A DNA stretch of 64,000 nucleotides from an uncultured bacterium (GTDB lineage: Bacteria > Eisenbacteria > RBG-16-71-46 > CAIMUX01 > WJJG01), in contig CAZPGB010000019.1 of NCBI GenBank assembly GCA_964585945.1, positions 29,159 to 93,158 on the forward strand. Direction: 5' to 3'. The position numbers were made by a program, and so were the translations under genes. Below are positions 1,881-56,280 of this stretch, one piece after another. The first letter of the stretch is position 1. Every line of letters starts with the position of its first letter. The notes beneath the pieces were generated by a model that searched no databases, was not told the DNA's origin, and saw nothing but the letters and a program-made list of their open reading frames with translations.

Positions 1881-4100
1881 CTAGCGCACGATCAGCGTGC
1901 GCGCCGCCTGGGCGCCCGCGCTGTGCACGCGAACGAAATAGACCCCCGCCCCCACCGACCCGACGCCGCGGCCGGTCGCATTCCAAAGGGTCTCATGGAC
2001 ACCCCGGCGGTGCAGCCCGTCGGCGACCACGGCGATCAACCGTCCGGACACGTCATGCACCTCTACGCGCGCCCAACCGTCCGCCGGCACGCGATAGGTG
2101 AGACGGGCGGATGCGCGGACCGGATTGGGCGTGGCGCGCAACGACAGACTCCTGCGGCTCGCAGCGACCACTCCCCCACCCGCAATCCCCGACGTTTGAG
2201 GGTCGATCTCATCCAAGAACCAAGCCGCGTTCTCGGGTGTGATCGCCACGTGTTCCTGGTTCTCGAGCGGGAAGTAGACCGCGTCGAATGGCGTGCGATC
2301 GAGCAGGTTCGGATCGCCCACGATGTCGTAGAACAGGTCGTCGGTGTCCAGCGCGAGAGCGCTGACGGTCGGGATGAACGCGTGATTGTCGTGCAGCGCC
2401 ACGATGTCTCCGTAGGGCGCCTCCACCGAATCCATCTGGGCCATGCTTCCCCGCCAGCCCCCGGGCGCGTTGTCGAACGGCCGGGTGAGCGACACGGTGA
2501 CAGACTGCTCCTCGGCCGGCAGCAGCACGAAGTCGATCAACCCTTCGAAGATCCGCCCGCTCACCTCGTTGGGCACCGCCCAGACGTTGCCGGTGATGTC
2601 GACGAGGAAGCTCTCGTACTCCCACCGGATGATCTGTTCGGTGGGAGCGAACCCCTGATCCTGTTGCGCGCCGCTCCCGTTGGCCACCGCCACCCGTCGC
2701 GGCATCGACGGGTAGGAGTCGAGCGCCGCGAGCTCATCGAGCAACACCTGCCGCAGCGGATCGCTCTGCCCCGTTCCCCCAGGAGGATCGGTGTGGTGGT
2801 AGACCAACATCTGCCGGGCGGCGGGGGAATCCAGCCCGGCCAGCAGCGCCGCGGCCTCCTCGGAGACCTGGGCAAAGAAGGCCACCCAGTACTGGATGCC
2901 CAGCGGGATGTTGGCTCCCTGCTGCGGCGCGTCGAACGAGATGAAGGTGCGCACGGAATGCGCAAGGCCCTGCTGCTCCATGTAGGCCAAGGCGTAGCGG
3001 CCCACGAGCCCGCCCATGCTGGCGCCGACCAGAACGAATTCGCGCTCGGGCGCGATAAGAGAGCGGATCTGCTCGACCAGCTCCACGGTCAGGAACGCAT
3101 TGCGCTGGATGTAGTCGACGCCGTCGGCGAAGTCGAGCACGACCAGATCGTAGCCCCTCGTCCGCAGGGTCTCGAGAAGCTCCTCCCGATTGAGCAAGGC
3201 ATACAACTCGTCCCATCCCATGGAGTTGTCGATGTCGAAACCCTCGAGGATCACCACCGGGTTGGTGAGGGCCGTGTGGAGATCGGAGAGGTAGACGTAG
3301 GCTTCGCCGCCTGCAAGCGCACCCAGGTAGGGAATCGTGGCCTGGACATGCAGCGTGTCGTCAGGCGTGGGCGCATCCAGGCGGCGCACATCGAAGACGA
3401 ACGCTGCGGCCAGGGGCACGCCGCCACGCTCCGAGGCGATGCGCAGCCGGACCGTCTTGAGACCAGCTTCCCCGTAGCGCACGGTGTGAATGCGTCCCCA
3501 GTCCAACGTCACCCAACCGCGTCCATCGGCGAAATCGGCCGCGACATCCGGAAGATCGGGATGGAGGTTGGTGAAGAAGTCCTCGGCCGCCAGGCGGAAG
3601 TCGACCCGGTGGCCGCGATAAGTGTGGGCCCGGAGGGCGGTGGCGGCAACCACGCGCTCGGCTTCCAGCGCGTTGTCGAGATCGCCCGGCCGGGTCCCGG
3701 TTCGCGCGGCCTCTTCCCACAGCTCCGGCGTTACCCGCTCGTAGGCGTAGTCGAGGACGGCCAGCGGGATGATGGATCGGCGCAGCGAGCTTTGCGCGCG
3801 CTTCAGCACAGCGGGCAAGGCCGGCAGACGGGGCGGATCGGGGGGGGCGGCGCGCAGCTCGTGATAGATCTGCCGCCAGTCGCGCTCCGAGGCGGCCGGC
3901 GCGCCCGGAGATCCGTCGAACCTCGCGGCCAGGCCGGAAGGCAGGAGGCGAAGCATGTCGGCCTGGAACCGCTCACGCTGCTCGGCGCCCGGCTCACTAC
4001 CCGGTCCCCGCGCGTGGGATGGACCGATCGCGGCCACCGCCAGAGCCACGGCGCACAGCCATGCCAGACGCCTGCCCGCGGGTCGCATCACTCGAATCAT
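1881..4100 (-). CDS. Secreted alpha/beta-hydrolase (lipase/esterase-like, GASMGG nucleophile elbow) with C-terminal T9SS sorting domain
   Basis: The true start is probably the internal MIRVMRPAGRRLAWLCAVALAVAAIGPSHA signal peptide with a GGGAGGG RBS at ~4100. It carries a GxSxG motif (VLVGASMGGLVGRYA). The C-terminus (RLTYRVPADGWARVEVHDVSGRLIAVV...GVYFVRVHSAGAQAARTLIVR) matches the Por_Secre_tail / FlgD-Ig-like CTD. Confidence 0.75.
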   Translation of the reverse strand: MIRVMRPAGRRLAWLCAVALAVAAIGPSHARGPGSEPGAEQRERFQADMLRLLPSGLAARFDGSPGAPAASERDWRQIYHELRAAPPDPPRLPALPAVLKRAQSSLRRSIIPLAVLDYAYERVTPELWEEAARTGTRPGDLDNALEAERVVAATALRAHTYRGHRVDFRLAAEDFFTNLHPDLPDVAADFADGRGWVTLDWGRIHTVRYGEAGLKTVRLRIASERGGVPLAAAFVFDVRRLDAPTPDDTLHVQATIPYLGALAGGEAYVYLSDLHTALTNPVVILEGFDIDNSMGWDELYALLNREELLETLRTRGYDLVVLDFADGVDYIQRNAFLTVELVEQIRSLIAPEREFVLVGASMGGLVGRYALAYMEQQGLAHSVRTFISFDAPQQGANIPLGIQYWVAFFAQVSEEAAALLAGLDSPAARQMLVYHHTDPPGGTGQSDPLRQVLLDELAALDSYPSMPRRVAVANGSGAQQDQGFAPTEQIIRWEYESFLVDITGNVWAVPNEVSGRIFEGLIDFVLLPAEEQSVTVSLTRPFDNAPGGWRGSMAQMDSVEAPYGDIVALHDNHAFIPTVSALALDTDDLFYDIVGDPNLLDRTPFDAVYFPLENQEHVAITPENAAWFLDEIDPQTSGIAGGGVVAASRRSLSLRATPNPVRASARLTYRVPADGWARVEVHDVSGRLIAVVADGLHRRGVHETLWNATGRGVGSVGAGVYFVRVHSAGAQAARTLIVR

Positions 4101-4329
4101 GGTTCCCTCCCGGGGTGGCGCGATCGAGTCCGCGACAGCCCTCCTCAGCGAATCGGCACCCCCAGCATACCGCGATCGTGGGCACCCGTTCCGTCGAATT
4201 CGGGCCCCGGCGGTGCGCCTCCAGCACCGGAGACGGCGTCTCGGGAACCGGTCACAGTCGCGCGGGTGATGCGTATTCCCTGCAGGAATGGGGGCCGTGG
4301 CCCCGAGACCTCGAACGCAGGAGAGTGTC

Positions 4330-5436
4330 ATGAACGCCAAACACAATAGATGGTTTCTGTTGCGGGCGCTGCCGCTCGCGCTGATCGGCCTGAGCTGGGG
4401 CTGCTCGGTCGAGTCGGTAGATCACTACGCCTATCCGTCGGATGGGGCCGGGTCGCAGGTGGATGTCACCGGGCCCTGGCAGCAGTTCGAAAAGCCCTCC
4501 GATGAGGAGATCCGTGCCCAGCTCGACGACGTGCAGTATCGCGTGACCCAGCACGACGGCACCGAGCCGGCCTTCCAGAATGCCTACTGGGACAACCACG
4601 AGGAAGGCATCTACGTCGACATCCTCTCGGGCGAGCCTCTGTTCAGCTCTCTCGGCAAGTTCGATTCGGGCACCGGCTGGCCCAGCTTCACGCGTCCCCT
4701 CGTGGGCGAGAACGTCGTGGAGCTCGAGGACGGGCACGTGGGTCTGAAACGCACCGAGGTGCGCTCCCGCTACGCGGACTCCCACCTCGGCCACGTCTTC
4801 CCCGACGGCCCACAGCCGACGGGCCTGCGCTATTGCATCAACTCGGCCGCGCTGCGTTTCATTTCCGTGGACCGCTTGGCGGAGGAAGGCTACGGCGCGT
4901 TCGCCGTGCTGTTCGATTCCGCGAACATGGAGGGAGCGATGATGTCGCACGGACGAGAGGTCGCCATCCTGGCCGGAGGCTGCTTCTGGGGCATGGAGGA
5001 CATCCTGCGGGAGATCCCCGGCGTGATCGAGACCGAGGTCGGCTACACGGGCGGTCACGTGGAGAACCCCACCTACCGGGACGTGAGCCGCGGCGACAGC
5101 GGGCACACCGAGGCGATCCGCGTGGTCTTCGACGCGGGCGTCCTGAGCTACGAGGAGCTTCTCGGTTACTTCTTCCGCATGCACGATCCGACGACGCGCA
5201 ACCGGCAGGGCAACGACGTGGGGACGCAGTACCGGTCGGCGATCTTCTACCTCGACGAACGCCAGCGGCAGACCGCCGAGCGCGTCAGGCAGGAGGTGGA
5301 TCGCTCGGGCAAGTGGCCCAGTCCCATCGTCACGGCCATCGTGCCGGCCGTGACCTTCTACCCTGCCGAGGAGTATCACCAGGATTATCTGGAGAAGAAC
5401 CCGGGCGGCTATACCTGCCACTATCTGCGCGACTAG
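4330..5436 (+). CDS. Peptide methionine sulfoxide reductase MsrB-MsrA fusion with N-terminal signal peptide (possible lipoprotein)
   Basis: MsrB motifs: [13 protein letters not shown]...GWPSF...[21 protein letters not shown]...RYCINSAAL. MsrA motifs: [13 protein letters not shown]...[15 protein letters not shown]...[11 protein letters not shown]...QYRSAIFY. The start was chosen at [26 protein letters not shown]. Confidence 0.85.
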
Positions 5437-5546: not shown

Positions 5547-7592
5547 CTACTGCACGACCACCAACCTGGCGCTGTCGGTTCCGTCGACGGTGGTGAGACG
5601 GGCGTAGTAAACGCCCGCCGCGACCGGCTGACCGGTCGCGTTACGGCCGTCCCAGGCGACGCTGACCTCGCCGGGGGTCACCGACCCGTTCCACAGGCTG
5701 CGCACCAACCGGCCGTTCAGATCGAGCACATCGAAGTGCACGTCCCCACCGGCGGCCCGGTCGGACAGCCGGAGCTGGAACGTCGCCGACTGGCCCGCGG
5801 CCACCCGCAGCGGATTCGACCGCACGGCGCTGATCCGCGAGCTGCTCCTGGCCACCGGCAGCTCGCCAACGCTCTGCCCCTGAAGCTCCGTCAGCCACTG
5901 GATGGCGCGGTCGAGCAGGGTGGCCATGTTGTTCGGATCGGGGTGCGTTTCGATCGAGGTGCAGGGGAAGACGCACGTGATCGAGCGATGCGTGTCGAAC
6001 TCGGCGCGCACCGCGGTGGGCAATCCGATCTCCTGGTAGAAGATGATCTCGGCATCGGCGGTGGGCGTGATCGTGTCGGCCCGGTTGTGGCCAGAGTAGA
6101 TGTACCAGAGCGTGAGGTCCATGCCGTCGCTGATCGGATCGCCGCTCACCCCCACGGCCTGCTCGGCGTCGGTGTTGGTGGTGAACTGGTCGATGCCGAG
6201 ATAGTCGGTGAGGAAGGGGTCGCCCGCCGTCCAGTAGTTGAGGAAGTCCTGGCTGGAGAGGAAGACGCCCGTGCCGTGGTCCATCGCCGCCTGCAGGGCC
6301 TCGGCCTCGCTGGGCGTGACGGGCTCGTAGCCGGCCCAGCCGTTCTCCCAGATGATGACGTCGTAGCCGATCACGTCATCCGGAGCGGGAGAGACGCCCG
6401 ACATCTCACCGTGAACGTCCCAGTGGATGTAGAGATAGCCGTTCGCCTCCAGCCCCTCGATGTAGGGCTGCTCGTTGGGAAACGTCGAGTGGGAGTTGGC
6501 GTCGTCATCCACGAGCAGAATCGCGTAGCTGCCGTTGAAGACCGACACGGTGTTGATCTGGATGCGCTCGGAGACCTGGGACTCGGCCCGCAGCCCCCCC
6601 TCACGGATCTCGCCGGCCCCGTCGGTGTTCACCCGCAGGTAGACCTCCACCGACTCGGTGGGGTCGAGCGGCACGACGCTCGGCGTGGAGTGGTATCCGG
6701 CCTCGCCCTCAACCATGAACTCGGTGGGCCAGCCGAAGGTGTCCTCCAGGCTGACCGTGATCTGATCGCTCTCGTCGCCGATGTTGGTCAGCGTGGCGGT
6801 GAACTCGGCGGTGCCGTTGCCGTCGGGGACCGACGCGACCGCGGCATGGAAGCCGAACTCGAAGTCGAGCACCATGGGGAACTCGGCCGAGTTGTACATC
6901 TCCTTGTCGCCGGTCATCTTCTGCAGGAACCCAAGGCAGTGGATGTTCTCGAGATTCCAGGAGGGGTCCACGGGGAAGTCGAAGGTCACCACCTGGTAGT
7001 CACCGGGGTTGATCAGGGTGACCGCCTCGTGGTACTCCGCCCGCACGATGTGGTCATAGACGTTGCCGATGTGCGCCACGTCATCCTCGAGCACCATCAA
7101 ATACGCGCGGGGGCTGAGCAGGGTCACCGGATCGTCCAGAGTGAAGGTCGCCATCACCGACACCGCGTCCGATCCGGGTACGTAGGAGCCCTCAATCGCG
7201 ACCGGCGCCACGCCGCCGGTTTCGGACAGGCGCATGTTGATGTAGTTGCGGTAGGTGGCGGCAGCACCCGAACAGGAGCTGGCCCCGACGGCCGCGTACT
7301 TGCCGTCGATCCGCACGTGCGGAACACCCGAGACATTGTAGAAGGAGGTCCGTTCCCCCACGGTGGGAATGTTCAGACCGCCCGAAGTATGCCATTCGGC
7401 GACCAGGAGTTGACCGGGAAACTCGCCAAGGACCGTTTCTAGCCCGCACCGGGCATAGGGGCAGTAGCCTCAGCTCGGATACCCGAAACCTTCCGCCAGA
7501 ATGACCCGCGGCACCGACGCTTCCGTCGCCGGCGTCGCCGCCAACGCCAGGACCGCGCCGAGCGCAGCCAGCACAGCAATCCTCGTCCTCAT
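5547..7592 (-). CDS. Secreted thioredoxin-fold protein with in-frame UGA (candidate selenocysteine, S-U-G-Y-C motif), CARDB-like middle domain and C-terminal T9SS sorting domain
   Basis: Signal-peptide ORF 7470..7673 (MRTRIAVLAALGAVLALAATPATEA, GGAAAGGAG RBS) and ORF 5547..7361 are in the same frame, separated only by TGA at 7470..7472. There is no ATG between them, and the 604-aa ORF 'starts' at an internal GTG. Reading through gives RVILAEGFGYPS-U-GYCPY, which aligns to thioredoxin VLVDFWATWCGPC. A GVPHVRIDG cis-Pro loop follows. The middle domain is CARDB-like (FTATLTNIGDESDQITVSL). The CTD is ...HFDVLDLNGRLVRSLWNGS...GVYYARLTTVDG. Confidence 0.55.
7439..7458 (-). other. SECIS-like bulged stem-loop 11 nt downstream of the in-frame UGA
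   Basis: mRNA CUA(U)GCCCG-GUG-CGGGCUAG forms an 8-bp stem with a bulged U and a GUG apical loop. It starts 11 nt after UGA, the same spacing as the E. coli fdhF SECIS. Confidence 0.3.
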
Positions 7593-7837
7593 CTGCAGCT
7601 CCTTTCCGGAGGTCCATCCACCGGCGGAGCGGAGACCCGCTGTTGGAGGGAAGCAGCACGCCCGCACCGCCACGACCCGTTCTCTGATGCCGGTACAATG
7701 GTAGCGAAGCGATGCGCGTCAGGGCAAGGCGGATGCACGCGTTGCGGCGCCGAGCGCGCGCGAGGCGTGGACCACACAACCAGAGCTAGATGCAAATTGT
7801 TGCATCACAGGGTGGACACGTTCGGGTAGGTGCGCGC

Positions 7838-8806
7838 CTAGGCCTCGCGCGGGATACGGTCCGGTTCGGAGATGCCTTGCCGGATCCAACCGGCCGCCAC
7901 GCGGCCGTTGTAGCCCTGTTCGTACCACTTCGACGCCACCGCCTGCTCGATCCCGCGCCATGCATAGGTGGCGGCGCCGAGCGGATCGGGGATGCCCGCG
8001 TCGATCCAGGCCTGCGACTCCTCCGGTCCCATGCCGGCCAGACGCCATCCCGCCGCGTCCGCAGGGGCGAAGCCGCCGCGCTTCCAGGGTACCGCCTCAG
8101 CTTCCGGGATTCCGGCGTCGGCGTAGTCGAACCGGTTGCGCAGCAGGCCGAAGACACTGCGGACGTCGACCGCGCGGCGACCAACGGCGACCGGATCGGT
8201 CAGCGTGAGATCCAGGAGGCCTGCCGCCGCCGCCTCGTCGATCTCACCCTCCATCCGCTGGAACCGTTCGAACAGGGCGTTGGCCTCGGCCGTTTCGCGC
8301 CGGCAATAGAGCAGATGCTGGCGCCAACGGTCGGCGACCTCTTCGCGATCCAGGATCTCCCCGTAGGCTATGAGACCCTGAACGAAGTGCTGCCGGGCGT
8401 AAGCGGCTTCGCAGGAATTGGCCACCCGCAACGCACGACGAACGCCGTCGCGGAGGATGGACTCGACGCTGGAGCTGGCCAGCAACTCCTGCATGAGACC
8501 GTCGAGCCGCTTCTGAGCGACCTCCAACAACCGGCAGGCCTTCGACGCCTCTCCCTCGACGCCTTCCTGATGGAAACGATAGCGCATGAGGGGCTCATGA
8601 CGCTGGAACATGGCCCACCACTCGCTGATCTTGTCGAGCACGTTGGCGGTGTTCTTCATCTTCTCTTCGCGGTCGGAGGCCTGCGAGAGAACCCCGAAGA
8701 CGTTCTCATAGACGTACATGCCCTGATAGGAAGCGCTGAGCGTGTTGATGAAGGCATGGGTGAGGTTGAGGTCGCCCAGAAGCTCCTCGCCAAGCGAATG
8801 TGTCAT
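7838..8806 (-). CDS. Hypothetical protein with C-terminal Trp/Ala/Gly-rich repeats
   Basis: Internal start MTHSLGEELL is preceded by a GAGGGGGG RBS. No recognisable domain. The C-terminus carries ~3 degenerate repeats (AxxWxxxGxxxxAAxW). Confidence 0.45.
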   Translation of the reverse strand: MTHSLGEELLGDLNLTHAFINTLSASYQGMYVYENVFGVLSQASDREEKMKNTANVLDKISEWWAMFQRHEPLMRYRFHQEGVEGEASKACRLLEVAQKRLDGLMQELLASSSVESILRDGVRRALRVANSCEAAYARQHFVQGLIAYGEILDREEVADRWRQHLLYCRRETAEANALFERFQRMEGEIDEAAAAGLLDLTLTDPVAVGRRAVDVRSVFGLLRNRFDYADAGIPEAEAVPWKRGGFAPADAAGWRLAGMGPEESQAWIDAGIPDPLGAATYAWRGIEQAVASKWYEQGYNGRVAAGWIRQGISEPDRIPREA

Positions 8807-8961
8807 GATTCCCCCCTCGGTGCTCGCATTCGGCCAACCGTCTTGAAGGATCGGCCGGTCCGGGGGGTTCCTTTGCCCTCGACGGGGCGCTGCTAGCGAG
8901 GTCCCAGCAAGACCACCGGGCGGGGCGCCTGAGGCGACGCCCCGCCGCACGTCAGCACCGA

Positions 8962-9480
8962 TTACTCACCACCGAGAGTGATCGTCACGTCGAATTCCCA
9001 ATCCCGCTGGAAGTCGGGATTCATCTCCGGCACACCGAAGTAGGTGGCCACCACTTCGAAGTACAGATCCGGCTGGTTGTCGAAGTAGCCGGAGAAGGTG
9101 AGCTCGAACTCCAGTTCCCCAGTCGTCTGATCGTACGAGGAGACGTTGATGGCCGTGATATCGCTGGCCTTCAGCGCCTTCCTCTCCAGCCACGGCCCCT
9201 GCGAGTTGAGCGTCAACCGGCCGTCCACGTAGGTGGTCGTCCACTGGTTGGGACCTGGACCGGGCTCGGTGGACTCGAGCGTGGCCTGGTTGAACATGAA
9301 GCCCTGTCCCGTGGCCATCAGCGTGTTTCCGGGCTGCCCGGGACCTCCGCCCTTGAACATCTCCTTCCAGAAGTGAACCGTGAAGTCCCCCGCCTGAGTG
9401 CTCCACGTCTCGGCGGTCGCGGACACCGCGAACAGCAGCGCAAAGGCACACAACCCAGACACGAGCGCAAACCTCTTCAT
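8962..9480 (-). CDS. Small secreted protein (signal peptide MKRFALVSGLCAFALLFAVSATAET), unknown function
   Basis: Has an AAGGAGG RBS and a clean signal peptide. Local GC and codon usage are coding-like. Confidence 0.6.
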   Translation of the reverse strand: MKRFALVSGLCAFALLFAVSATAETWSTQAGDFTVHFWKEMFKGGGPGQPGNTLMATGQGFMFNQATLESTEPGPGPNQWTTTYVDGRLTLNSQGPWLERKALKASDITAINVSSYDQTTGELEFELTFSGYFDNQPDLYFEVVATYFGVPEMNPDFQRDWEFDVTITLGGE

Positions 9481-9816
9481 GACAAAGCCTCCTTATTCAG
9501 CAGCCCCCGGTCGTGCGGCTGGTGCGGGCGGAGTGTTGCAGATGAGACGATGGCATCGTCGGCCGCGAACACATGAGTCCCGTTCGCACGAGCCTGCGGT
9601 GAGCTCGTTCGCGGCACAGTTGGGTAGGACCAGAGAATCCTAGCCAATGGGGCTTGGCGCTGTCAACGAGCCCATCGCGTCTCTCAAGGCGATGTTGCAT
9701 CCGTAAGCCGACATCGGGCCATCGATCCTTGACCTGCTGCAAAGGCGGGCCCAGCATGCCCGCCAGAGGGATCTTCCCCCCAAGAAGGAGGGTGCGAAGA
9801 GGTTAGGAGGAACCCC

Positions 9817-10515
9817 ATGAAGGAACGACCGCCCCTTCGGCTCCACGAGGAGATCATGCTGCTCTCACTGAAGGACGAGAAGGGCACCATGACGAGCAGC
9901 GAGACGCTCCCCTACATTCTGGGCGCCGCCGCCCTGGCGGAGCTGCTTCTGGAGCAGCGCATCGGCATCGGGGAACCGCGCAAGAAGAAGCTGGTGGAGG
10001 TTCTGAGCGGCAAGCCCACGGGCGATCCTATCTTGGACGAAAGCCTGCAGCGTATTGCCAAGGCCAAACGACGGGCGAGTCTGAAGAATTGGGTAACGCG
10101 GATTGCGCGCTCGAAGCATCTCAAGCACCGCGTCGCCGAAGAGCTCTGCCACAAGAGGATCGTCCGCTCCGAAGAAGACACGGTGCTGCTCATCTTCAAG
10201 CGTCGCCTCTATCCGGAGATCGATTGTAAGCCCGAGCGGGCCATCATCCAGCGTCTGCGGCGGGCCATCTTCACCGACACCCGCACCCTGGACCCCCACA
10301 CGGCAGTACTGGTCGCCCTGGCCCATCAGGCCGGTCTGTTGAAGAACGCCTTCGACAAGGGGGATCTCAAGCGGCGCAAGGCGCGGCTGAAGGAAATCGC
10401 TCGCGGGGAGGTGACCGCCAAGGCGGCCAAAGAGGCAATCGACGCGATGCAGGCGGCGGTCATGGTCGCGGCGATCATGCCGGCCATCGCCGCGTCCAGC
10501 GCGGGCGGACGTTAG
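9817..10515 (+). CDS. GPP34/GOLPH3-family protein (bacterial homolog of Golgi phosphoprotein 3 / Vps74)
   Basis: LHEEIMLLSLKDEKG...AAALAELLLEQRI matches the GPP34 N-terminal signature (L.EE..LL.L.D..G). A strong AGGAGG RBS precedes it. Confidence 0.65.
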   Translation: MKERPPLRLHEEIMLLSLKDEKGTMTSSETLPYILGAAALAELLLEQRIGIGEPRKKKLVEVLSGKPTGDPILDESLQRIAKAKRRASLKNWVTRIARSKHLKHRVAEELCHKRIVRSEEDTVLLIFKRRLYPEIDCKPERAIIQRLRRAIFTDTRTLDPHTAVLVALAHQAGLLKNAFDKGDLKRRKARLKEIARGEVTAKAAKEAIDAMQAAVMVAAIMPAIAASSAGGR

Positions 10516-10570
10516 CTCGTACCGACGTCAGCGTTTCCATGAACCCTGACGCACAAGATGAAGATGAAAG

Positions 10571-10596
10571 GGGGGGGAGGCCCACCGCCTCCCCCC
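10571..10596. terminator. Bidirectional G/C hairpin terminator between convergent GPP34-like and RRM genes
   Basis: GGGGGGAGGC-ccacc-GCCTCCCCCC is a 10-bp perfect stem. It lies 55 nt after the + gene stop and 8 nt after the - gene stop. Confidence 0.5.
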
Positions 10597-10603
10597 TCTA
10601 CGA

Positions 10604-10915
10604 CTACCAGCGGTTGCGCCCGCCGCCGCCGCCGCCGCCGCGGGGACCGCCGCCGCGCGGACGGTTCTCACGAGGCTGGGCCACGTTGACCTTCAGATTG
10701 CGACCCATGAACTCCTTGCCGTCCAGGTTCTCGATCGCCTTCTGGGCCTCCTCGTCCTGGGCCATCTCGACGAAGCCGAAGCCGCGGTGGCGACCGGTCT
10801 CGCGATCGGTGATCACCTTGGCCGAGATCACTTCTCCATGCTGGGAGAAGAGCTCGTGCAGGTCGTCTTCACGCGTGTCGAAGGAGAGGTTGCCGACGTA
10901 CAGGTTCTTGGACAT
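10604..10915 (-). CDS. RRM-type RNA-binding protein with Gly-rich C-terminus
   Basis: RNP2 NLYVGNL, RNP1 RGFGFVEM, and a RGGGPRGGGGGGGRNRW tail. Confidence 0.9.
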   Translation of the reverse strand: MSKNLYVGNLSFDTREDDLHELFSQHGEVISAKVITDRETGRHRGFGFVEMAQDEEAQKAIENLDGKEFMGRNLKVNVAQPRENRPRGGGPRGGGGGGGRNRW

Positions 10916-11540
10916 CTCTGCGTACCTTTCAGTCCGTCACGCCCCGCCGCACCGGTGGCGTGCCCTTACCATTTCAGCCAACCTGAGACCGTACTTGGTG
11001 GGACCCCGGCAGGTCCGCTGGACTCTCATTCCTTCGTCAACCCAGGCATACCCACGCAAGGTGTGGTAAGGGGGAGAAAGGCGTTCGACACAGCAGGACT
11101 TCGGCCTTGCGAACCCAGAGTGCGGATTGGAGCAGGCGTCTGTTCGATCTCCTCCAGAGCCATGTCTCAGGCTTTCACAGGAAGCCCCCGGCGCGGCTGC
11201 GCCGACCGACTTGCCCACAATTCAGCCAGAGAATCGTCTTTGACGCGGGCTTTGTCCAGACTTTTTGTGCGTGTGGGTTGGGATTCGTCCGGGGTTTTGC
11301 ACCCTCCCACCGACGCGGTCCCAGGGGGGGCGAGCACCCTTCCGGGGCGGTATGCTCTTCTGGCGAAATATCTTAGGGGATGATTCCGGAAAAGAGGTGT
11401 GACCGCCCCCCTCAGGACCAGGGGCGGGTCACCGGCCGGCCGCCTTGGGGTGCGCGGCAGAGCCCTGGGGGCGCGGGGGCGAGCCCTGGGCTGGCTCCCC
11501 GCGCCCCGATGCACGCTCTGACGGTCGGCCGCGGGTGGGT

Positions 11541-14500
11541 CTAATGCAGGAGCGTCACCTGCCGCACCTGCATCACCTCCGGCGTGTCCAGGCGCAGGAA
11601 GTAGATACCGCTCGGCAGTCCGCGGCCGGTGGCGTCGAGTCCGTCGAAGCTCACCGGATGGACTCCGGCCTCCTGCTCCTCCCGGACCAGCGTGCGCACC
11701 CGGCGGCCGTTCAGATCGTAGAGCGCCAGATCCACCGCGGTCCGGCTCCCCAGCCGGTAGACGATCCTGGCCTGCGAGGCGATCGGATTGGGACCGTAGG
11801 ACAGAATCGCCGTCGCCAGCCCTCGTGGGACCTCCTGGGACCCGCTGGCCGGTGCTCGCACCACCGTCAGGCTGAAGTCGTCGACGGCCGCCTCCACCAG
11901 GGAGCCGGGCGATTCATCGGCCGCGATGAAGCGAAGCTGCACGCGATCCGAGAAAGCGATGTGCTGCAGCAGATCGAATTCATGGTAGGTCCAGGAATTG
12001 TCGCTCTCCTGCGTGTACTCCAGGTGCTCCCAGTTCTCCCCGTCGCTCGTGACATCCACGGTCCACCAGTCCTGACCCGGGTTGTTGCCCAGGTCGTTGG
12101 TGTACCAGCGCCAGTAGGAAACGGAGGCCTCGGACGCGCTGCTGAGATCGAAGGCCGGCGTCAACAGCGTGGTCCGCCCGTTGTCCACGTCCGCCTCACC
12201 CACCGATCCGCCCTGGCTGCCGTTGGCGGTCACGAAGCAGATCTCGGCCGGGTCGGGGGTGTGATCTAGGTCGGGCTGCACGGGCTGGCCGCCCTCCCAG
12301 GTGCCCAGCGGCTCGGCCCGGGTCCAGTGGCCGGTCGTGGCGTCGTCGCCCAGCGCGCCCAACGTCCAGCCGCGGTCGGTCTCCACATCGTCGAACCAGG
12401 CCCCGACATCGACCGCAAAGGTGAGCTCCGCCGTGAAACCGGCCGCGCCGCTGAGAGAGAGGGTGAAGTCGATCACCGCGGGGTCGGGACAGCTTGGGAG
12501 CAGCTCGACCGCGAAGGAACCGACCAATCCGGGCTGCCCCACGTCGGCCGACACGCACGTGCCCTCGCCGTCGATGATCACCACATCCGGGTGAGCGCAG
12601 GCGATCTCGGCGGTGAGGTCGCGCGCATCGGCGTGCCCGGTGTTCTCGAGCCACACCTGCAGGTAGACCGTCTCGCCCGGGTCGGCGCCCCCGTCACCGT
12701 TGCCGTGCGGAGGGAGGTCGTTCACCAGGAGACCCGTGGGGGCCAGCACCGGCGCCTGGGCGATCAGGTTGAAATGGCTCTCCCAACTGCCCTGCGTGGC
12801 CGCAGCGAGCAGATCGAAGCGCACCACCTGCTGATCGGGGATGTTTCCGGCCACCGCGAGCACATACGGCACGAGGCAGCACTCGATGCCTCCCGCCGGA
12901 ATGTCGAGGAAGATGCGATTCGACTCGTGCACCGTCACGTAAGGATCTTCGGTCGACAAGAGCGCGCTCACGTTGGTCGCATCCTCGACGCCCACGTTCT
13001 CCAGCATGATCGACACGCCCACATCCTCGGCCCAGTCGAGGTGGCCGTCCTGATCGCCGCCTTCGTCGTGAACCTCGGAGTCGTGGTACACCAGGTAGGC
13101 CCCGGCGGGCGGGATGATGGGCGTCTCGGCCTGGAAGACCAGATGGTCGTGGGCAACCACGCGGATCTGCAGCGTCCCCGGCGCCTGGGCGTTGGGGTGA
13201 AGCTGGGCGTGGCCCGTCGCGTCGGTCACGGCGACATCGTAGACCGCGTAGTCGTCGGTGAAGATGACCACCCGCGCGCCCTCCACCGGACCGCCGCCCT
13301 GGGTGAACACGTCCACGTCCATGTCGGGCGCGCCCAGGAAGACCACGTCGGGGTACTCGACCGTGAGCTGGGCGGGCTCGGCGGTCCAGAGCTCCATCGC
13401 CGGGTCGCCGAAGGCGTTGAGCTGGTAGTAGCACCAACGGTTGGCCCCGTAGGTGATGGCCCAGATGTTGTCCATCTTCGAGTCGTCGTTCACGTCGGCC
13501 AGCGCGTAGATCCCCTCGCCGAAAACCGCGTCGAAGAACTGCCGGTCGAAGTACTGCGACGACCCGTTGGTGCTCTGGTGCATGCCCCAGCCATAGCGCG
13601 AGTTCATCACCAGGGCGGCTGCGCCGTGGTCGTCGCTCTGGAACTCTTCGGCAAAGCAGTCGTCGGTGTAGGAGCCGTAGTCGTTGCGGTTGTCCATCGA
13701 GCCGCAGTAGCAGCCCTGGCTGTAGACGATGTTGTACGTGTGGTTGAGACCATCGTTGGTGAAGCTGCCGATGTCCGGATTGTCCATCTTCATGGCGTAG
13801 GTCACGTTGCAGTGGCCCAGATGGTTGACGATGTGCAAGCCGCCGTTCATCAGATCGATGAGCTGATACTTGCTCCAGGTGGCGGTGCGGTCGTAAAGCG
13901 TGTCGACGTTGAAATGGGGTGGGAATCCGACGGTCGTGTAGCCGTGGGCCGAGGAGCCGTCCTTGATCTCATCCTTGTAGTCGCCGCCCCAGGTGGGATC
14001 GCTCCACAGCAGCTCGCCCACCATGAGGGCCTCATCGCACTCCGCCACCACGGGCGCGTCCTGGTAGCGCATGACCTTGGTGATGAAGTGGGTCAATTCC
14101 TCCTCGCTGTCGATGCAGGCCCGGGCGACGCCGACCTCGTGATAGAGATCATCCTCACCCGGCTCACCCCAGCGACTGTCGCCGTCGTCGTTCCAGGTGC
14201 CGTCCAGACAGCCGTAGTACATGTCGGCGGGGATGTCGCTGTCGGTGCTGCCGTAGGGGGTCGTGGAGTAGAGACCGCGGTGGGGTATGCCGTTGTCGTC
14301 GCGAGCGTCGCCGACCAGCAGCACGTAGTCGACATCCCATGTCTGATAGGCATCGATGATGAAGTTGCGGATGTCCTCTTGATCGTCCACGCCGCCGGTG
14401 TAGTTGGACAGGATCCAGGAGCGCGTGAAGAGGCCGGCCTTGTGCCCGCGCTGGGTCTCGAAATCGACCAGCGCGGCCGCCCCGTCGGCCCAGGGATCGC

Positions 14501-15242
14501 CGGCGATGATCAGGTAGCGGTACGCGTCCTCGGGATTGAGATCGCGGCCGCCGCGCACCGCCCGTTCGATCGTTGCGTACGCGGAAACGGCCTCGGGGTT
14601 GTCGACGATCCGCGCCAGACGCGCGCACGTCGCCTCGTCGTGACGGATCATCCGCGCCGTGCGCTGCGCGATCGCATCATCGGACCGTGTGTGCAGGACG
14701 ACCTCGAACGAGACGAAGTAGCTCAACCGGCCTTCAGACGGCAGATAGCGCACCGGGTGCAGGGCCAGGCTGCCGATCGCGTAGCCGCGGAACATCCCCG
14801 TCTGCGAGTCTCCGTGCAGGCGCGGTGGATAGGCCGTGGCGCTGCCGTAGACCGCCGCGTCGGGCTCGCACGGCGCCTGCGGTCCGGTCTCGCTCAATGG
14901 GACCTGCGGCTGCCCGCACGCCACGCGGTAGACGCCCGGAAGAACCACCTCCTCGCCGGGAATCACCTCCACGTGCGAGATCACCTCCCCCGGCGGCAGG
15001 AGCGCTTGCACGCCGGCGCGCGGCAACGCTGGGGCGCCGGGCGCGCCGTAGGTGAGCGCCCCTTCGAGGGTCACGACGTGCCGGCCGCCGTCTTGGGCGA
15101 CGGTGGGGGCATCGTAGACGTAGTGTAGGTGGACCTCCCCGGCCGAGACGGTCGGTGACGTGATCAGACCGGCGATGAGGCCGGCCAGGGTCATCAAAGA
15201 CGCGACGAGGCCTGGCCTCGCCCGGCGGCGGGTAGCGCGCAT
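11541..15242 (-). CDS. Peptidase C25 (gingipain/PorU-like) family secreted protein with MAM-like domain and C-terminal T9SS sorting domain
   Basis: Start at MRATRRRARPGLVASLMTLAGLIAGL with an AGGAGG RBS. C25-like core: YLIIAGD...DYVLLVGDARDDNGIPHRG...YYGCLDG. CTD: VYRLGSRTAVDLALYDLNGRRVRTL...GIYFLRLDTPEVMQVRQVTLLH. It could be a cargo protease or a PorU-like signal peptidase; no porV is adjacent. Confidence 0.65.
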   Translation of the reverse strand: MRATRRRARPGLVASLMTLAGLIAGLITSPTVSAGEVHLHYVYDAPTVAQDGGRHVVTLEGALTYGAPGAPALPRAGVQALLPPGEVISHVEVIPGEEVVLPGVYRVACGQPQVPLSETGPQAPCEPDAAVYGSATAYPPRLHGDSQTGMFRGYAIGSLALHPVRYLPSEGRLSYFVSFEVVLHTRSDDAIAQRTARMIRHDEATCARLARIVDNPEAVSAYATIERAVRGGRDLNPEDAYRYLIIAGDPWADGAAALVDFETQRGHKAGLFTRSWILSNYTGGVDDQEDIRNFIIDAYQTWDVDYVLLVGDARDDNGIPHRGLYSTTPYGSTDSDIPADMYYGCLDGTWNDDGDSRWGEPGEDDLYHEVGVARACIDSEEELTHFITKVMRYQDAPVVAECDEALMVGELLWSDPTWGGDYKDEIKDGSSAHGYTTVGFPPHFNVDTLYDRTATWSKYQLIDLMNGGLHIVNHLGHCNVTYAMKMDNPDIGSFTNDGLNHTYNIVYSQGCYCGSMDNRNDYGSYTDDCFAEEFQSDDHGAAALVMNSRYGWGMHQSTNGSSQYFDRQFFDAVFGEGIYALADVNDDSKMDNIWAITYGANRWCYYQLNAFGDPAMELWTAEPAQLTVEYPDVVFLGAPDMDVDVFTQGGGPVEGARVVIFTDDYAVYDVAVTDATGHAQLHPNAQAPGTLQIRVVAHDHLVFQAETPIIPPAGAYLVYHDSEVHDEGGDQDGHLDWAEDVGVSIMLENVGVEDATNVSALLSTEDPYVTVHESNRIFLDIPAGGIECCLVPYVLAVAGNIPDQQVVRFDLLAAATQGSWESHFNLIAQAPVLAPTGLLVNDLPPHGNGDGGADPGETVYLQVWLENTGHADARDLTAEIACAHPDVVIIDGEGTCVSADVGQPGLVGSFAVELLPSCPDPAVIDFTLSLSGAAGFTAELTFAVDVGAWFDDVETDRGWTLGALGDDATTGHWTRAEPLGTWEGGQPVQPDLDHTPDPAEICFVTANGSQGGSVGEADVDNGRTTLLTPAFDLSSASEASVSYWRWYTNDLGNNPGQDWWTVDVTSDGENWEHLEYTQESDNSWTYHEFDLLQHIAFSDRVQLRFIAADESPGSLVEAAVDDFSLTVVRAPASGSQEVPRGLATAILSYGPNPIASQARIVYRLGSRTAVDLALYDLNGRRVRTLVREEQEAGVHPVSFDGLDATGRGLPSGIYFLRLDTPEVMQVRQVTLLH

Positions 15243-15626
15243 GATGTTCTTCCTCCTTGCGTGGCGATGGGCCGTAGGGTATCGAATGTCCATATTGTAG
15301 CATCTGGCTGCCCAGCCGAGAACGTAGTTTACGCAGGTCCTAATGCCTTCCGTGACAATTCGTTGGGCGCGGATATCCGCTAGCGGCGGGCGCTGAGACG
15401 ACCCGAAACGGCCGGCGGGACCATCTCCCGTCCCCCCGCCGGCTCGACCGCCATCCACGGAAAGGGAAAGGAAATCAGCCCGGCGTGCCGATATCAGCCA
15501 CTGGAAGGACGACCCAGGGAAGGGCCGCCCCGGCAGGACGCCGTCCCGCTTGCCTGCGACACCGCATCATGTGCCCGGACGGGGCCCGCCGAGTCCGCAA
15601 ACCCGGCACACGATGAGGACCCGCAG

Positions 15627-18600
15627 ATGTCTTGCAGAGCTCTTCTTCTCGGCATGTTGACCCTGGCCGCGCTCGCGACGATCGTCACGAGCTGCGACGA
15701 CGACGACCAGGCCTCCCCGGCCCCCTCCTGCGACGTGACGCTCGAGGTGCCCAACGTCGGCGGTACCTGGAAGGTCGGCGAGACCTACCTGATCCGCTGG
15801 TCGAGCAGCGGGCCGTGCGGGTCGATCGTCAGCCTCGAGCTGCTGCGCGAGGGCGAGGTGTGCCTGGTGCTCGCCGACTCGACCGCCGACGACGGCGGGC
15901 TCTTCTGGGAGTGCACCGCCTGCGCCGATGACACGAGCGGGTACCGGGTGCGCGTCACCGACATCGTGACCGGGCGCGCGGATCACAGCGACATGCCCTT
16001 CACGCTGTCGCCCCATCAGGGCCTGTTGATCCACTGGACCGACGAGTCGGCCCCTGGCCCCATGGTGGCCGGCTCTACGACCGACCTGCACTGGGACAAC
16101 ACCGGTCTGGCGGGCGATTCGGTCATGATCGAGCTCCTGTGCGACGGCAGTGTCTGCGACACCCTGGCAGCCGCCGAGCCCAACGATGGGAGCTTCACGT
16201 GGGAGGTGGCAGCCGGCCCCTCGCCGGAAACCGATCTTTCGTTTCGGGTCACGGACCTGATGACCGGCGCCTCGGACGTCACCGACTGGACCTTCCGCGT
16301 CGTGACCGGCGAGGCCTTCGCCGTGACGCAGCCCAACGGCGGTGAGACGTGGCTCACGGGCCAAACGCACGAGATCACCTGGGAGCCGGCCGGCGGCGCG
16401 CAGGATTCGGTGGCCATCGAACTGCTCCACGACGGTGTGGCGTGTCACACGATCAGCTCGGGCGCCCCGGGCGGGGGCACCTTCTTGTGGACCGTGACCG
16501 GCTGCTGGGGCGACTCGTGCGCCTACGCCGTGAGGGTCACCTCCCTCGCCACCGGTCTGGCCGACGCCAGCGACGAGGACTTCTGCATTCTCAGCGCCGA
16601 GCTGGACCTGTCGGCGCCCAACGGCGGCGAGACCTGGTACGAAGGCGAGACCCGCACCATTACCTGGGACGCATCCGGCGCGGTGGGCGACACTCTGCAG
16701 GTCTTCTTGGCCCGGCAGGAGGCGATCTGCGACACGATCACGCTCGAAGCCGCCACGGCCGCCGGCGGCCTCGATTGGACCGTCGCGAGCTGCGCATGCG
16801 GATCGGCGCCCTGCGACTCGTGCGCCTACACGGTGCGGCTCGTCAACCCCTCCACGGGGATCACCGACGAAAGCGCGGCGACCTTCTGCATCCTTCCGCC
16901 GGCGCTGACCGTCACCGCCCCGAACGGCGGGGAGGTGTGGAACGAGGGCGAGCCGCAGACGATCACGTGGGAGCCATCGGGCGCCGCCGGCGATGCGGTG
17001 CGCATCGAGCTGCTGCTGGAGGGCGTCGTGTGCGCCACCCTCGCCGACAGCACCGACAACACGGGCGCCTTCGCCTGGACGGCCGCGCCGTGCGGCGCCG
17101 ACACCAGCGGCTACACGATCCGCGTGACCGATCTGGAGACCGGCGCGCAGGACCAGAGTGACGATGCGTTCCGTATCGCACCCCCGACGCTCACCATCAC
17201 CTCCCCCAACGGGGGTGAGGACTGGATCGAGGGCGGCAACTACGTCATCACCTGGGGCCGGTCGGGCCTGGCGGGCGACAGCGTCACGATCGAGCTGCTC
17301 CACGAGGGCGCCGTCTGCGCGACGATCGCTGCCGAAGCGCCCAACAACCGTAGCTACACCTGGACCGCCGCGCCCTGCGCCGGCGACTCCTGCGCCTACC
17401 GCGTGCGGATCACCGACCCGACCACCGGGGTGGCCGACACGAGCGACGCGGTCTTCTGCGTCCGCTCCTACGTGTTCGCCGTGCTCTCCCCGGCCGACGG
17501 CGATCGCTGGTTCGAGGGCGCCGAGCAGGAGATCTCCTGGACGCGGGCCGGCACGTCGGGCGAGTTCGTGAAGATCGAGCTGCTGCACGAGGGCGCCGTC
17601 TGCGCGACGATCGCCGAGAGCGCCCCCAATACGCGCACCTTCCTCTGGAGCACCGCCCCCTGCGAAGATGACACGTGCGGGTTCCAGATCCGCGTCACCG
17701 ACACGACCACGCAGTCGACCGACGACAGCGAGGGCGCCTTCTGCGTGCCGCCTTCCACGCTGACCGTCACCGCGCCGGTGGGCGGCGATGCGTGGACCGA
17801 AGGCACGATGCAGCAGATCACCTGGACCCAGGAGGGCCTCGCGGGCGAATCGGTCCTGATCGAGCTGCTGCACGAGGGCGCGCCGTGCGACACGATCGCG
17901 ACCGAGGCCCCCAACATCGGCGGCTACGCCTGGACGGTCGCCGCCTGTGAAGCGGACACCTGCGGGTACCAGATCCGCGTGACCGATGCGGCCGCCGGAA
18001 CCAGCGGTCAGAGCGCGGGCGAGCTCTGCATCACCCGTCCCCAGCTCTTCCTCACCATGCCCAACGGCGGGGAAGCCTGGGAGGAGGGCACCGCGTACAC
18101 CATCCTGTGGCAGGTGGTCGGCACGGCCGGTGATGCGGTGGTCATCGAGCTGCTGCACGACGGTGCGGTCTGCGACACGATCGCGGCCGACGCCCCCAAC
18201 ATCGGCGCCTACGCCTGGGTCGCGCGCGGTTGCCAGGCGGAGGCCGACGGCTACCAGGTGCGCATCACCGACCCGGCCACGGGGACGAGCGACACCAGCG
18301 CGGCCACTTTCAGCATCGCTCCCACGCTGCTGATCACCGCACCCAACGGAGGCCAGCAGTGGCGGGAGGGATCGACGCAGACGATCATCTGGGACCATTC
18401 CCACACCTATGGCGACTCGGTGCAGATCCTGCTGCTGCACGATGGGGCGGTCTGCGACACCATCACGGCGGCCACCGCCAACGACGGCGACTTCGATTGG
18501 GCCGTCGCGGGCTGCGGATCCGATAGCTGCGACTACCGCGTGCGGGTGATCGATCCGACGACCGGCGCGCAGGACGAGAGCGACGCCGGCTTCTGCATCC

Positions 18601-20312: not shown

Positions 20313-20343
20313 GCGGAGAGGCTGCACAACGGTAGATGTACGT

Positions 20344-20369
20344 CCGGAGTTGCCCCGGGGCAACTCCGG
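20344..20369. terminator. Perfect 13-bp inverted repeat (CCGGAGTTGCCCC/GGGGCAACTCCGG) between convergent genes
   Basis: Seen directly in the sequence, in the 116-bp gap between stops at 20312 (+) and 20429 (-). Confidence 0.45.
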
Positions 20370-20428
20370 GCCGTGACGCGTGCAGGAATCACGCAAGGCG
20401 CGGGCGAGCACAACCGGCGTCGGTTCTC

Positions 20429-28478: not shown

Positions 28479-30398
28479 CTAGCGCAGCCGGAAGGCCAGC
28501 ACCGCCAGCGGCGGCAACGTCACGTTCAGCGATTGACGAAACCCGTGCATGCCCACCGGCCGCGCTCCCGCGCCACCCAGGTTCCCCTGGCCGCTTCCCC
28601 CGTAGAGCGGCGCATCGCTGTTGAGCGCCTCTTCCCAGTAGCCGTCGGCGGGCACGCCCAGCCGGTAGTTGGGACGCACGATCGGCGTGAAGTTGCAGAC
28701 AAAGACCAGCGGACGCGACGCGTCGTCCCCGCGCCGCAGAAACGCCAGCACGCTCTGCTCGGAGTCGTTGCAGTCGATCCACTGGAATCCGCTCGGCTCG
28801 ACATCCCGGCGATGAAGCGCCGACTCACCGCGCAGAAACGTGTTCAGGTCGCGCACCCACCGTTGGAGCTGGGCATGGCGATCGTCCTGCAGCAGATGCC
28901 AATCGAGACTGCGGCTGTGATTCCACTCCGACCACTGCCCGAATTCATTGCCCATGAAGAGTAGCTTCTTTCCTGGGTGAGCGAACATGTAGCCGTAGAG
29001 CAGGCGCAGGTTGGCGAAGCGCTGCCAGTCGTCGCCCGGCATCTTGCCGATCATCGAGCCCTTTCCGTGCACGACCTCGTCGTGCGAGAAGGGCAGGATG
29101 AAGTTCTCGTGGAATGCGTACAGCAGGCTGAAGGTGAGCCGGCTGTGGTGGAACCTGCGGTGGATCGGGTCCCTGGATATGTAGTCCAGCGTGTCGTGCA
29201 TCCATCCCATGTTCCACTTCATGTTGAAGCCAAGCCCACCCAGATGCGTCGGACGCGAGACGATGGGCCACGCGGTCGACTCCTCGGCGATCATCATCAC
29301 GTCCGGATGGCACTCGAAAACCAGCTCGTTGAGACGCTTCAGGAACGCAATCGCCTCGAGGTTCTCGCGTCCGCCATAGCGGTTGGGAATCCACTCCCCC
29401 TCTTGGCGGGAGTAGTCCAGATAGAGCATCGAGGCGACGGCATCCACGCGCAGACCGTCGATGTGATACTCCTCCATCCAGAACAGCGCGTTGCTAAGCA
29501 GGAAGTTGGCCACCTCGTTGCGACCGTAGTTGAAGACGAACGTCCCCCAGTCGGGTTGCTCGCGCTGGCGCGGGTCGGCGTGCTCGTAGAGGTGGGTGCC
29601 GTCGAAGAAGCCCAGCCCATGGGCGTCGCGCGGGAAGTGGGCCGGCACCCAGTCGAGGATCACCCCGATGCCCGCCTGGTGGAGCGTGTCGACCAGGTAG
29701 CGGAAGTCGTCGGGCGACCCGAACCTGCTGGTGGGCGCGTAGTATCCGATGCACTGGTAGCCCCATGAGCTGTCCAGCGGATGCTCGGAGACCGGCATCA
29801 GCTCGACGTGGGTGAAGCCCATCTCGCGGACGTAGTCGGCGAGCTGGTGGGCGGTCTCGCGATACGTGAGCCAGCGGTCGCCCTCCTCCGGCTTCCGCCG
29901 CCAGGAGGCCAGATGCACCTCGTAGATCGAGATCGGCCGCTCAAGACCGTTGCGCTCTGCGCGCGTGCGCATCCACGCTTGATCGCCCCAGCGGTAGCAG
30001 CCCAGATCCCAGACCACCGAGGCGGTCTGCGGTCTGAGCTCGCTGGCGAAGCCGTAGGGGTCGGCTTTGTCGAAGACGGCCTCGTGGTCGCGTCCGGTGA
30101 TGAGGTACTTGTAACGGGCGCCCACCGCGGCGTCGGGCACGAAGGTCTCCCACACGCCGCTGTCGCCGCGGCTGCGCATCGGGTGCGCGGTCCGGTCCCA
30201 GTCGTTGAAGTCGCCGATCACCGCCACGGAGCGCGCGTTGGGCGCCCAGACGGTGAACCAGACGCCGGCCTTCCCGCCCACCTCTCCCGGGTGCGCGCCC
30301 AGCTTCTTCCAGGCTTGGTAGTGCTGACCTTCCATCAACAGATGAAGGTCGTAGTCCGTCAAGAAGGTTTTGGTGTTGGATTGCGCGTCGGTTGTCAT
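28479..30398 (-). CDS. glgB: 1,4-alpha-glucan branching enzyme
   Basis: Start at [27 protein letters not shown] with a GAGGA RBS. Full-length GH13 GlgB similarity. Confidence 0.9.
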
Positions 30399-30454
30399 GG
30401 TGTGTCCTCGAGCGATCATGTACTGGGCGCCGTCCTCGCGATGCGGAGCGGCGC

Positions 30455-33817
<3,363 letters not shown>

Positions 33818-33818
33818 C

Positions 33819-36996: not shown

Positions 36997-37085
36997 GTAG
37001 ACGACCCGCAAGAAGGGTCCCTCTGTCACAGCCGACCTCCCTTTTCTCGCCTCGGCCCGGCACGGCCGGGGCGGGTTCTTTCGAT

Positions 37086-39227
<2,142 letters not shown>

Positions 39228-39428
39228 CGTGAACCTCCGATCTGCCTTGGCGTTTCCGGCTCCAGGCGTGGCCGCCGCGCGTCCTAGCCGGAGTCCGCGC
39301 GGCAACACAGGGTGCCACGGTCACATATCCCGCTTGCCGAACGGTCCCACGCTACAACCCGAGGCCCGCTTCAAGCGAGCGCGTTCTGCGATCGACCTGC
39401 GCCGGATTCGGTGAAGAGCCCACCGCCA

Positions 39429-55184: not shown

Positions 55185-55240
55185 TCCCGCCCGGCGGGCC
55201 TCCTCGGTAAGGACCTGTGCTGGAAACCTGCGGGGCGACC

Positions 55241-56203: not shown

Positions 56204-56280
56204 CTCCGCGGTGCGGCCGCATGAGCCGGCCGACCGCGCGAGCGCCGAAGGGCGGGTTGGTAGAAAGGAAGTCCCGAGCC

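Follow-up and report, generated by a model that had tools for sequence, protein, structure and literature searches.

The question raised by this locus is whether two adjacent open reading frames (ORFs), separated by a TGA codon, are independent genes or two parts of one gene in which the TGA is read as selenocysteine (Sec). The ORFs are on the minus strand of a 64-kb stretch of DNA (positions 29,159 to 93,158 of contig CAZPGB010000019.1; referred to here as the window) from an uncultured bacterium of the Eisenbacteria lineage. A first-pass annotation of the window proposed a selenoprotein with a thioredoxin fold that is exported by the type IX secretion system (T9SS) and has Sec at the first position of its active site. 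We consider it highly probable that 7592..5547 (minus strand) is one gene encoding a 681-residue, surface-type thioredoxin-fold selenoprotein, in which UGA codon 41 is read as Sec by means of a selenocysteine insertion sequence (SECIS). The evidence that carries this reading is the reading frame, the alignment of the Sec codon with Cys, the conservation of the TGA, constraint at the RNA level, the fold and the order of the domains. Judged from the sequences, this is a real selenoprotein gene, the first-pass interpretation of it is correct, and it is a solid and moderately novel find.

Reading Frame and Leader

The ORF list for the region has two pieces, 7470..7673 (67 amino acids) and 5547..7361 (604 amino acids, with a GTG start). 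As the first-pass annotation stated, the two pieces are in one frame, and neither an in-frame ATG nor a stop codon occurs between 7469 and 7361 on the minus strand. Ahead of the TGA, direct reading of the sequence identifies a ribosome-binding site, GGAAAGGAG (7599..7607, minus strand), that is separated by a 6-nt spacer from an ATG (7592..7590). The ATG is followed by a Sec-translocon signal peptide, recognized by inspection as residues 1-25, MRTRIAVLAALGAVLALAATPATEA (7518..7592, minus strand), with predicted cleavage before SVPRV. The complete coding sequence (5547..7592, minus strand) has 681 codons including Sec41, a single in-frame TGA and a TAG stop codon at 5549..5547. The UGA, codon 41, is located at 7470..7472 (minus strand), the resulting UxxC motif (U41-G-Y-C44) occupies 7461..7472 and the read-through product is ...VPRVILAEGFGYPS-U-GYCPYARCGLE.... 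The GC content at third codon positions (GC3) is 0.90 in the frame after the TGA, which is typical of real genes in this window (67-70% GC).

TGA is the stop codon of many high-GC3 ORFs in the window, among them the glgE-like and kinase genes named in the first-pass annotation. Therefore, UGA is not reassigned.

Conservation of the TGA Codon

The closest database protein (P0001), which is 61% identical to the window protein, begins after the site in question. The contig that encodes it has a TGA at the aligned codon, and protein conservation extends upstream of that TGA. An exhaustive search of cluster representatives, using the 209 residues after the TGA as the query, produced 344 representatives with E values up to 1e-3. 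Of the best 150 among these 344, 25 are full length and have both a signal peptide and a CxxC motif, two are full length with no Cys at the first position, and about 123 start downstream of the site, which is the result expected if Sec genes are miscalled. The full-length Cys forms (P0003, P0019, P0020 and others) have the sequence AEDFxATWCxxCPxARCALE, which matches AEGFGYPSUGYCPYARCGLE of the window protein residue for residue. Thus, TGA codon 41 aligns with the first Cys of WCxxCP in the full-length relatives.

The DNA encoding eight of the truncated homologs, together with one tandem paralog, displays the same arrangement. All nine have an equivalent leader ORF of 37-41 codons with a signal peptide, and each leader ends with a TGA at the same codon. 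Two loci from species-representative genomes (L009 and L010, both 'uncultured bacterium' metagenome-assembled genomes) also have TGA at this position. Amino-acid conservation crosses the TGA in all of the relatives.

A census was made with a degenerate DNA pattern for [E/D]-x6-[TGA/TGC/TGT]-x2-C-x2-A-R-C-[G/A]-[L/V]-[E/D], in which all of the wobble bases were left free. The sample was a metagenome collection plus the loci that had already been fetched, and 50 sites were confirmed as members of the family by a profile hidden Markov model. TGA is present at 46 of these 50 sites, TGC at three and TGT at one. The pattern matches the window once, compared to 0.00 matches expected from shuffled sequences. 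These counts and the aligned Cys homologs agree with the original proposal that Sec occupies the first position of a thioredoxin-type UxxC. From this comparison, there is almost no doubt that the TGA encodes selenocysteine.

Some of the relatives have tandem arrays of the gene. For example, one locus (L010) has five TGA genes in 13 kb (7779..21200), four of a long form and one of a short form. Two TGA genes each are present in L009 (7709 and 10049), L007 (2965 and 5383), L049 and L062, and in one genome (L012; 944 and 3130) a TGA gene adjoins a TGC gene. The window has a single copy and no tandem array. A scan of the window for additional genes with an in-frame TGA produced one match, 19136..19138 (minus strand), where a TGA is flanked by high-GC3 open frames. 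This match is antisense to a large gene for a repeat protein and most likely arises from base composition alone; the scan turned up no further candidate for a selenoprotein gene in the window.

Two other explanations of the TGA can be weighed at this point. The first is that it is a true stop, so that the upstream ORF encodes a 40-residue leader peptide and the main protein starts separately at GTG 7361. This is how gene callers treat the region; the NCBI record of the window gene is a 604-residue unnamed product (P0272), nearly all of the relatives are deposited as truncated proteins in public records, and TGA is a normal stop codon in other genes of the window. However, GTG 7361 has neither an ATG nor a ribosome-binding site ahead of it, and the downstream product would lack a signal peptide as well as two parts of its own fold, strand 1 and the active site. 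Furthermore, the protein sequence encoded by the 36 codons from the TGA to the GTG is conserved, and this conservation extends to the C of UxxC and to the ARC motif. The called starts vary between homologs while the position of the TGA is constant. We regard a true stop as very improbable.

The second explanation is that the gene is a pseudogene or that the TGA is an assembly or sequencing error in a Cys codon, since one base change from TGC or TGT would be sufficient. The short-read contig of the closest homolog has an apparent frameshift in its leader: in L001 336..430 the reading frame of the signal peptide is displaced by one base from that of the remaining gene, probably through misassembly of a C/G run. 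However, this TGA is shared by 46 related genes, which come from many independent assemblies and include up to five paralogs in one locus, and the sequence of the same organism recurs in runs SRR7048224 and SRR7048225. An error or a pseudogene can be given practically no weight.

The Hairpin Downstream of the TGA

If the TGA is read as Sec, the mRNA just downstream of it would be expected to fold into a bacterial SECIS hairpin, which would recruit SelB with Sec-tRNA(Sec) by the established bacterial mechanism. The candidate hairpin is located at 7439..7458 (minus strand), with its upper stem and loop at 7442..7454. Numbering from the U of the UGA as position 1, the lower stem consists of C15-G34, U16-A33 and A17-U32, U18 is bulged, the upper stem extends from G19-C31 to G23-C27 and the apical loop is G24 U25 G26. 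The core of the hairpin is GCC CGG UGC GGG C, with the loop GUG. Folding thus agrees with the first-pass description of a hairpin that begins 11 nt after the UGA and has a GUG loop.

Published criteria for bacterial SECIS elements are a loop of 3-9 nt, an upper stem of 4-16 bp, a G in the first two loop positions, a distance of 16-37 nt from the UGA and a minimum free energy (MFE) of at most -7.5 kcal/mol (PMC13188914). The window hairpin has a 3-nt loop that begins with G, stems of 5+3 bp, a spacing of 20 nt and an MFE of -10.2 kcal/mol, and so, all of its values are within these limits.

The hairpin is also conserved. Each pair of the upper stem is formed in 43-44 of 44 distinct Sec-form RNAs, and the lower stem is partly conserved across the family. 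Paired cells amount to 88.6% at the hairpin in these 44 RNAs, compared to 19-47% in slid controls. Pair 21-29 is C-G in 39 of them, G-C in four and mismatched in one; as read from the alignment, this is a compensatory change between the wobble base of an Ala codon and the second base of a Gly/Ala codon. At loop position 24, which is the wobble base of an Arg codon, every one of the 44 Sec forms has G, and the four Cys forms all have C. When wobble sites are compared pairwise, the mean identity amounts to 0.93 within the hairpin versus 0.41 outside of it, and the codons used in the hairpin are non-preferred ones in the window (GGG is 22% of the Gly codons and CGG is 32% of the Arg codons). The comparative pattern is that of a hairpin held by selection at the RNA level, at synonymous sites.

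The SECIS of Escherichia coli fdhF has a bulged U17 and a loop with G23 U24. The window hairpin is similar in that it is within the coding sequence 3' of the UGA and has a bulged U 6 nt before the loop G-U; U18 and G24 U25 have the same geometry shifted by 1 nt. It differs from the fdhF type in having a 3-nt loop (GUG) rather than one of 4 nt and an unrelated stem sequence, and SelB binding is putative here.

Fold and Domain Architecture

AlphaFold models were made for the 640 window residues after the TGA (predicted local distance difference test, pLDDT, of 92.9) and for a full-length Cys homolog, P0019 (pLDDT 89.6). The domain order in the models is a thioredoxin-like domain, a beta-sandwich, an immunoglobulin-like (Ig-like) sandwich, an alpha/beta domain and a C-terminal Ig-like domain.

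The thioredoxin-like domain (residues ~26-126; 7215..7517, minus strand) has strand 1, UxxC at the N-terminus of helix 1 and the Pro loop GVPHV. In the P0019 model, a strand (32-38) is followed by C42-x-x-C45 and a helix (45-58), so that CxxC is at the N-terminus of helix 1; the Pro of the loop before strand 3 is invariant in the alignments. The models and a match to HBP35 of Porphyromonas gingivalis (described below) bear out the thioredoxin fold that was originally proposed, and by these models the fold of the N-terminal domain is that of thioredoxin. A profile of the family had no sequence-level match to any solved structure among the PDB sequences.

The second domain is an Omp28-like beta-sandwich (residues ~131-238; 6879..7202, minus strand). 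The third (residues ~244-353; 6534..6863, minus strand) was called CARDB-like in the first-pass annotation. That label is unconfirmed, as the region has no Pfam match and the secondary structure of the model supports only an Ig-like beta-sandwich; distant homologs bear DUF11 or CARDB. The fourth domain, which the first-pass annotation did not mention, is a class I glutamine-amidotransferase-like (GATase1), ThuA-like alpha/beta domain (residues ~358-568; 5889..6521, minus strand). The last is a C-terminal Ig-like domain of the sorting type (residues ~586-681; 5550..5837, minus strand). It contains the only Pfam match above cut-off in the protein, FlgD_ig at residues 598-669 (E 7.7e-11, 42.3 bits versus 27).

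Secretion Route

We predict that the C-terminal Ig-like domain would direct type IX secretion and attachment to the cell surface. The window protein has a signal peptide, and the C-terminal domains of homologs P0020, P0110, P0129 and P0150 exceed the cut-off of the T9SS sorting model TIGR04183. Another homolog, P0275 (MBD3162667.1 / MBD3302738.1), carries the NCBI name 'T9SS type A sorting domain-containing protein'; its records are from Candidatus Eisenbacteria and Latescibacterota.

Four other large secreted proteins encoded in the window have a C-terminal Ig-like domain of the same kind, and two of the four pass the TIGR04183 cut-off. They are a lipase/PGAP1-like protein (1881..4106, minus strand), a protein partly similar to the T9SS sortase PorU (11541..15248, minus strand; the loci of relatives have Peptidase_C25), a protein with polymorphic-outer-membrane-protein repeats (26076..28475, plus strand) and a subtilisin-like protein (44107..45900, minus strand). 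As for the T9SS machinery itself, the PorU-like and GldK-like matches in the window are far under their cut-offs.

T9SS export is likely because the protein has a signal peptide and because the domains of homologs and of window neighbors pass TIGR04183. The original claim of a T9SS C-terminal sorting domain is not confirmed in that form, as the protein's own C-terminal domain passes FlgD_ig and is below the cut-off of TIGR04183 (see below). From the sequence features, the window protein is likely to be secreted by a T9SS-type route.

Relationship to Known Families

NF045500, 'Omp28-related selenoprotein', is the best family match for the window protein and for all of the relatives tested. Among the NCBIfam models, it is the best match to the window protein, with an E value of 1.3e-14 and 54.4 bits over profile positions 39-265 of 377. 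A search by name for proteins called 'Omp28-related selenoprotein' found only Cys-type proteins of Bacteroidota. NF045500 has been equated with GOS_C in a 2026 review (PMC13188914), and GOS_C was predicted in 2008 by Zhang and Gladyshev from ocean metagenomes as a hypothetical protein with a Trx-like fold, UxxC and no known function (PMC2398784). The GOS_C sequences consisted of 74 Sec and 312 Cys forms, i.e., about four times more Cys than Sec (PMC2398784).

The window protein resembles GOS_C/NF045500 in its Trx-like fold with UxxC (U-G-Y-C in the window protein), in the SECIS just after the UGA and in the existence of Cys homologs. It differs in that GOS_C is mostly Cys, whereas the window clade is about 90% Sec. 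To our knowledge, extra domains of the Ig-like, GATase1-like and FlgD_ig types have not been described for GOS_C.

Among characterized proteins, the closest counterpart is HBP35. It has thioredoxin activity that is lost on mutation of its two Cys residues, it binds hemin and it reaches the cell surface via the Por/T9SS system with anionic lipopolysaccharide (A-LPS) attachment. In the models, the thioredoxin domain plus the sandwich of the window protein has the same fold as HBP35 (PDB 5Y1A). However, the two proteins are only 13-15% identical, so that the link is at the level of the fold; HBP35 has CxxC rather than UxxC, and it lacks the Ig-like and GATase1-like domains of the window protein. 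The product of the window gene is probably a cell-surface selenol/thiol redox protein, and it would be the Sec counterpart of HBP35.

The Omp28 proteins of Bacteroidota are more distant. The window protein has no match to NF033782 (Omp28-related outer membrane protein, Bacteroidota) at E values up to 1, and its Cys relatives score 19-41 bits versus a cut-off of 150. The window protein also differs in coming from a high-GC lineage that is related to Candidatus Eisenbacteria and Latescibacterota.

The first-pass annotation presented a selenoprotein exported to the cell surface as an arrangement not known to have been described. That novelty was overstated, as it was preceded by the prediction of GOS_C in 2008, by the T9SS cargo HBP35 and by SaoB and SaoC, which have been proposed as extracellularly exposed bacterial selenoproteins. 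A literature search found no paper joining selenoproteins to type IX secretion or Omp28 to selenoproteins. The gene is best filed within the Omp28/HBP35-like thioredoxin-fold family, Sec forms of which had already been predicted. Neither the mechanism nor the fold is new in kind; what sets the gene apart is its score under the cut-off of the curated family, the several domains that it combines, the near-exclusive use of Sec in its clade, the tandem arrays of its relatives and the lineage. On the sequences compared here, we read the window clade as a distinct one, almost always Sec-containing, in Candidatus Eisenbacteria and Latescibacterota.

Observations That Count against a Selenoprotein

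Several results weigh against the interpretation given above. Some of them concern the hairpin. The MFE z-scores of 60-80-nt stretches after the UGA are not better than those of shuffled sequences, and so, the support for the hairpin is comparative and not thermodynamic. No Rfam family was found at the gathering threshold in the whole window or at E values up to 10 in 7380..7500. The bases of the hairpin also encode the conserved A-R-C-G/A motif, and three of the four Cys forms (L012 3130, L013 495, L028 and L109) keep a similar stem, GCG CGC UGC GCG C, with the loop CUG rather than GUG. Therefore, the stem may in part be explained by the coding sequence itself. The stem in the Cys forms, of which there are only four sequences, may be a SECIS that is decaying after a change from Sec to Cys, or it may be a side effect of the A-R-C-A codons.

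Other results concern family models. The thioredoxin models are below their cut-offs (Thioredoxin_3, 10.4 bits versus 24.8; TIGR00411, 18.9 bits versus 92.75), as are TIGR04183 for the C-terminal domain (15.7 bits versus 23) and the Omp28 family PF11551 (19.8 bits versus a Pfam cut-off of 34.9), from which the window protein also differs in having Sec instead of Cys. The 54.4 bits to NF045500 are far from the cut-off of 200, and the relatives score 40-90 bits; for this reason the window protein is outside the curated family. In addition, no electron donor is evident for a redox protein that is exposed at the surface.

The remaining result concerns the Sec machinery. Neither the 64-kb window nor any of the 129 loci that were fetched yielded selA, selB, selD or tRNA-Sec; the search for tRNA-Sec covered the window plus 37 of these loci, and that for SelD, by tblastn with the E. 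coli sequence, covered the window plus all 129. This would be expected if the UGA were decoded as something other than Sec, either by near-cognate read-through (as Trp, Cys or Arg) or by a lineage-wide reassignment of UGA. However, many well-supported genes of the window have UGA as their stop, so that UGA is not reassigned, and in the alignments codon 41 is matched by Cys rather than by Trp or Gly. The structured element, with its loop G-U invariant and its distance from the codon fixed, points to SelB recruitment rather than to leaky termination, and the occurrence of a Sec form beside a Cys form in one genome (L012) also counts against this alternative. We consider decoding as another amino acid unlikely, although it is the least improbable of the three alternatives, and we favor Sec.

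Neighboring Genes

A gene for a bifunctional MsrB/MsrA methionine sulfoxide reductase (Msr; 4288..5436, plus strand), with 377 bits to NF004042 and a lipoprotein-type leader (..LSWGC), is convergent to the selenoprotein gene, and the stop codons of the two genes are about 110 nt apart. An exported Msr beside a surface thioredoxin-like protein recalls PilB of Neisseria, which is a Trx-MsrA-MsrB fusion. The enzyme was considered as a functional partner of the selenoprotein and was set aside, as the two genes are not neighbors in the eight homolog loci for which tables of called genes exist.

Three other regions of the window can be mentioned. The first (15627..20312, plus strand) encodes a 1561-residue protein that has no NCBIfam match and that consists of about twenty repeats of ~75-80 residues with the consensus PNGGE.W..G....I.W...G..GD.V.IELL..G..C.TIA...N.G...W....C..D.C.Y.VR.TD..TG. 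The second (28479..39320, minus strand) is an apparent glycogen/trehalose cluster; its translations are glgB-like, treS-pep2 fusion-like, glgE-like, glycogen synthase-like and glgX-like, and several of its genes terminate in TGA. The third (55217..58641, plus strand) encodes, as judged from the translations only, a radical-SAM activase followed by a glycyl-radical-enzyme-like protein of ~800 residues.

Conclusions

It is quite possible, although we stop short of calling it probable, that this clade is the first recognized T9SS selenoprotein cargo, i.e., cell-surface UxxC selenoenzymes that almost always have Sec and that have multiplied in tandem, to as many as five Sec genes within 13 kb, in Candidatus Eisenbacteria, Latescibacterota and their relatives, where they have been invisible in public annotation as truncated ORFs. 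The advance is incremental rather than categorical because GOS_C had already been predicted and because HBP35, a Cys counterpart on the T9SS route, has been characterized.

The finding has practical consequences for annotation. In public databases, the window gene and well over a hundred clusters of related proteins appear as N-terminally truncated proteins without the signal peptide and the active site. As NCBI's selenoprotein model NF045500 does not reach them, a new model for the clade would repair many records. Furthermore, a 13-nt SECIS core that is nearly invariant over proteins that are 35-60% identical provides unusually clean natural data on what a SelB-binding hairpin needs.

Finally, if the reading as T9SS cargo is true, these bacteria spend selenium on extracellular redox chemistry for which there is no obvious electron donor. 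The presence of Sec in about 90% of the members and the multiplication of the genes in tandem argue that selenium gives these bacteria a real advantage at the cell surface.

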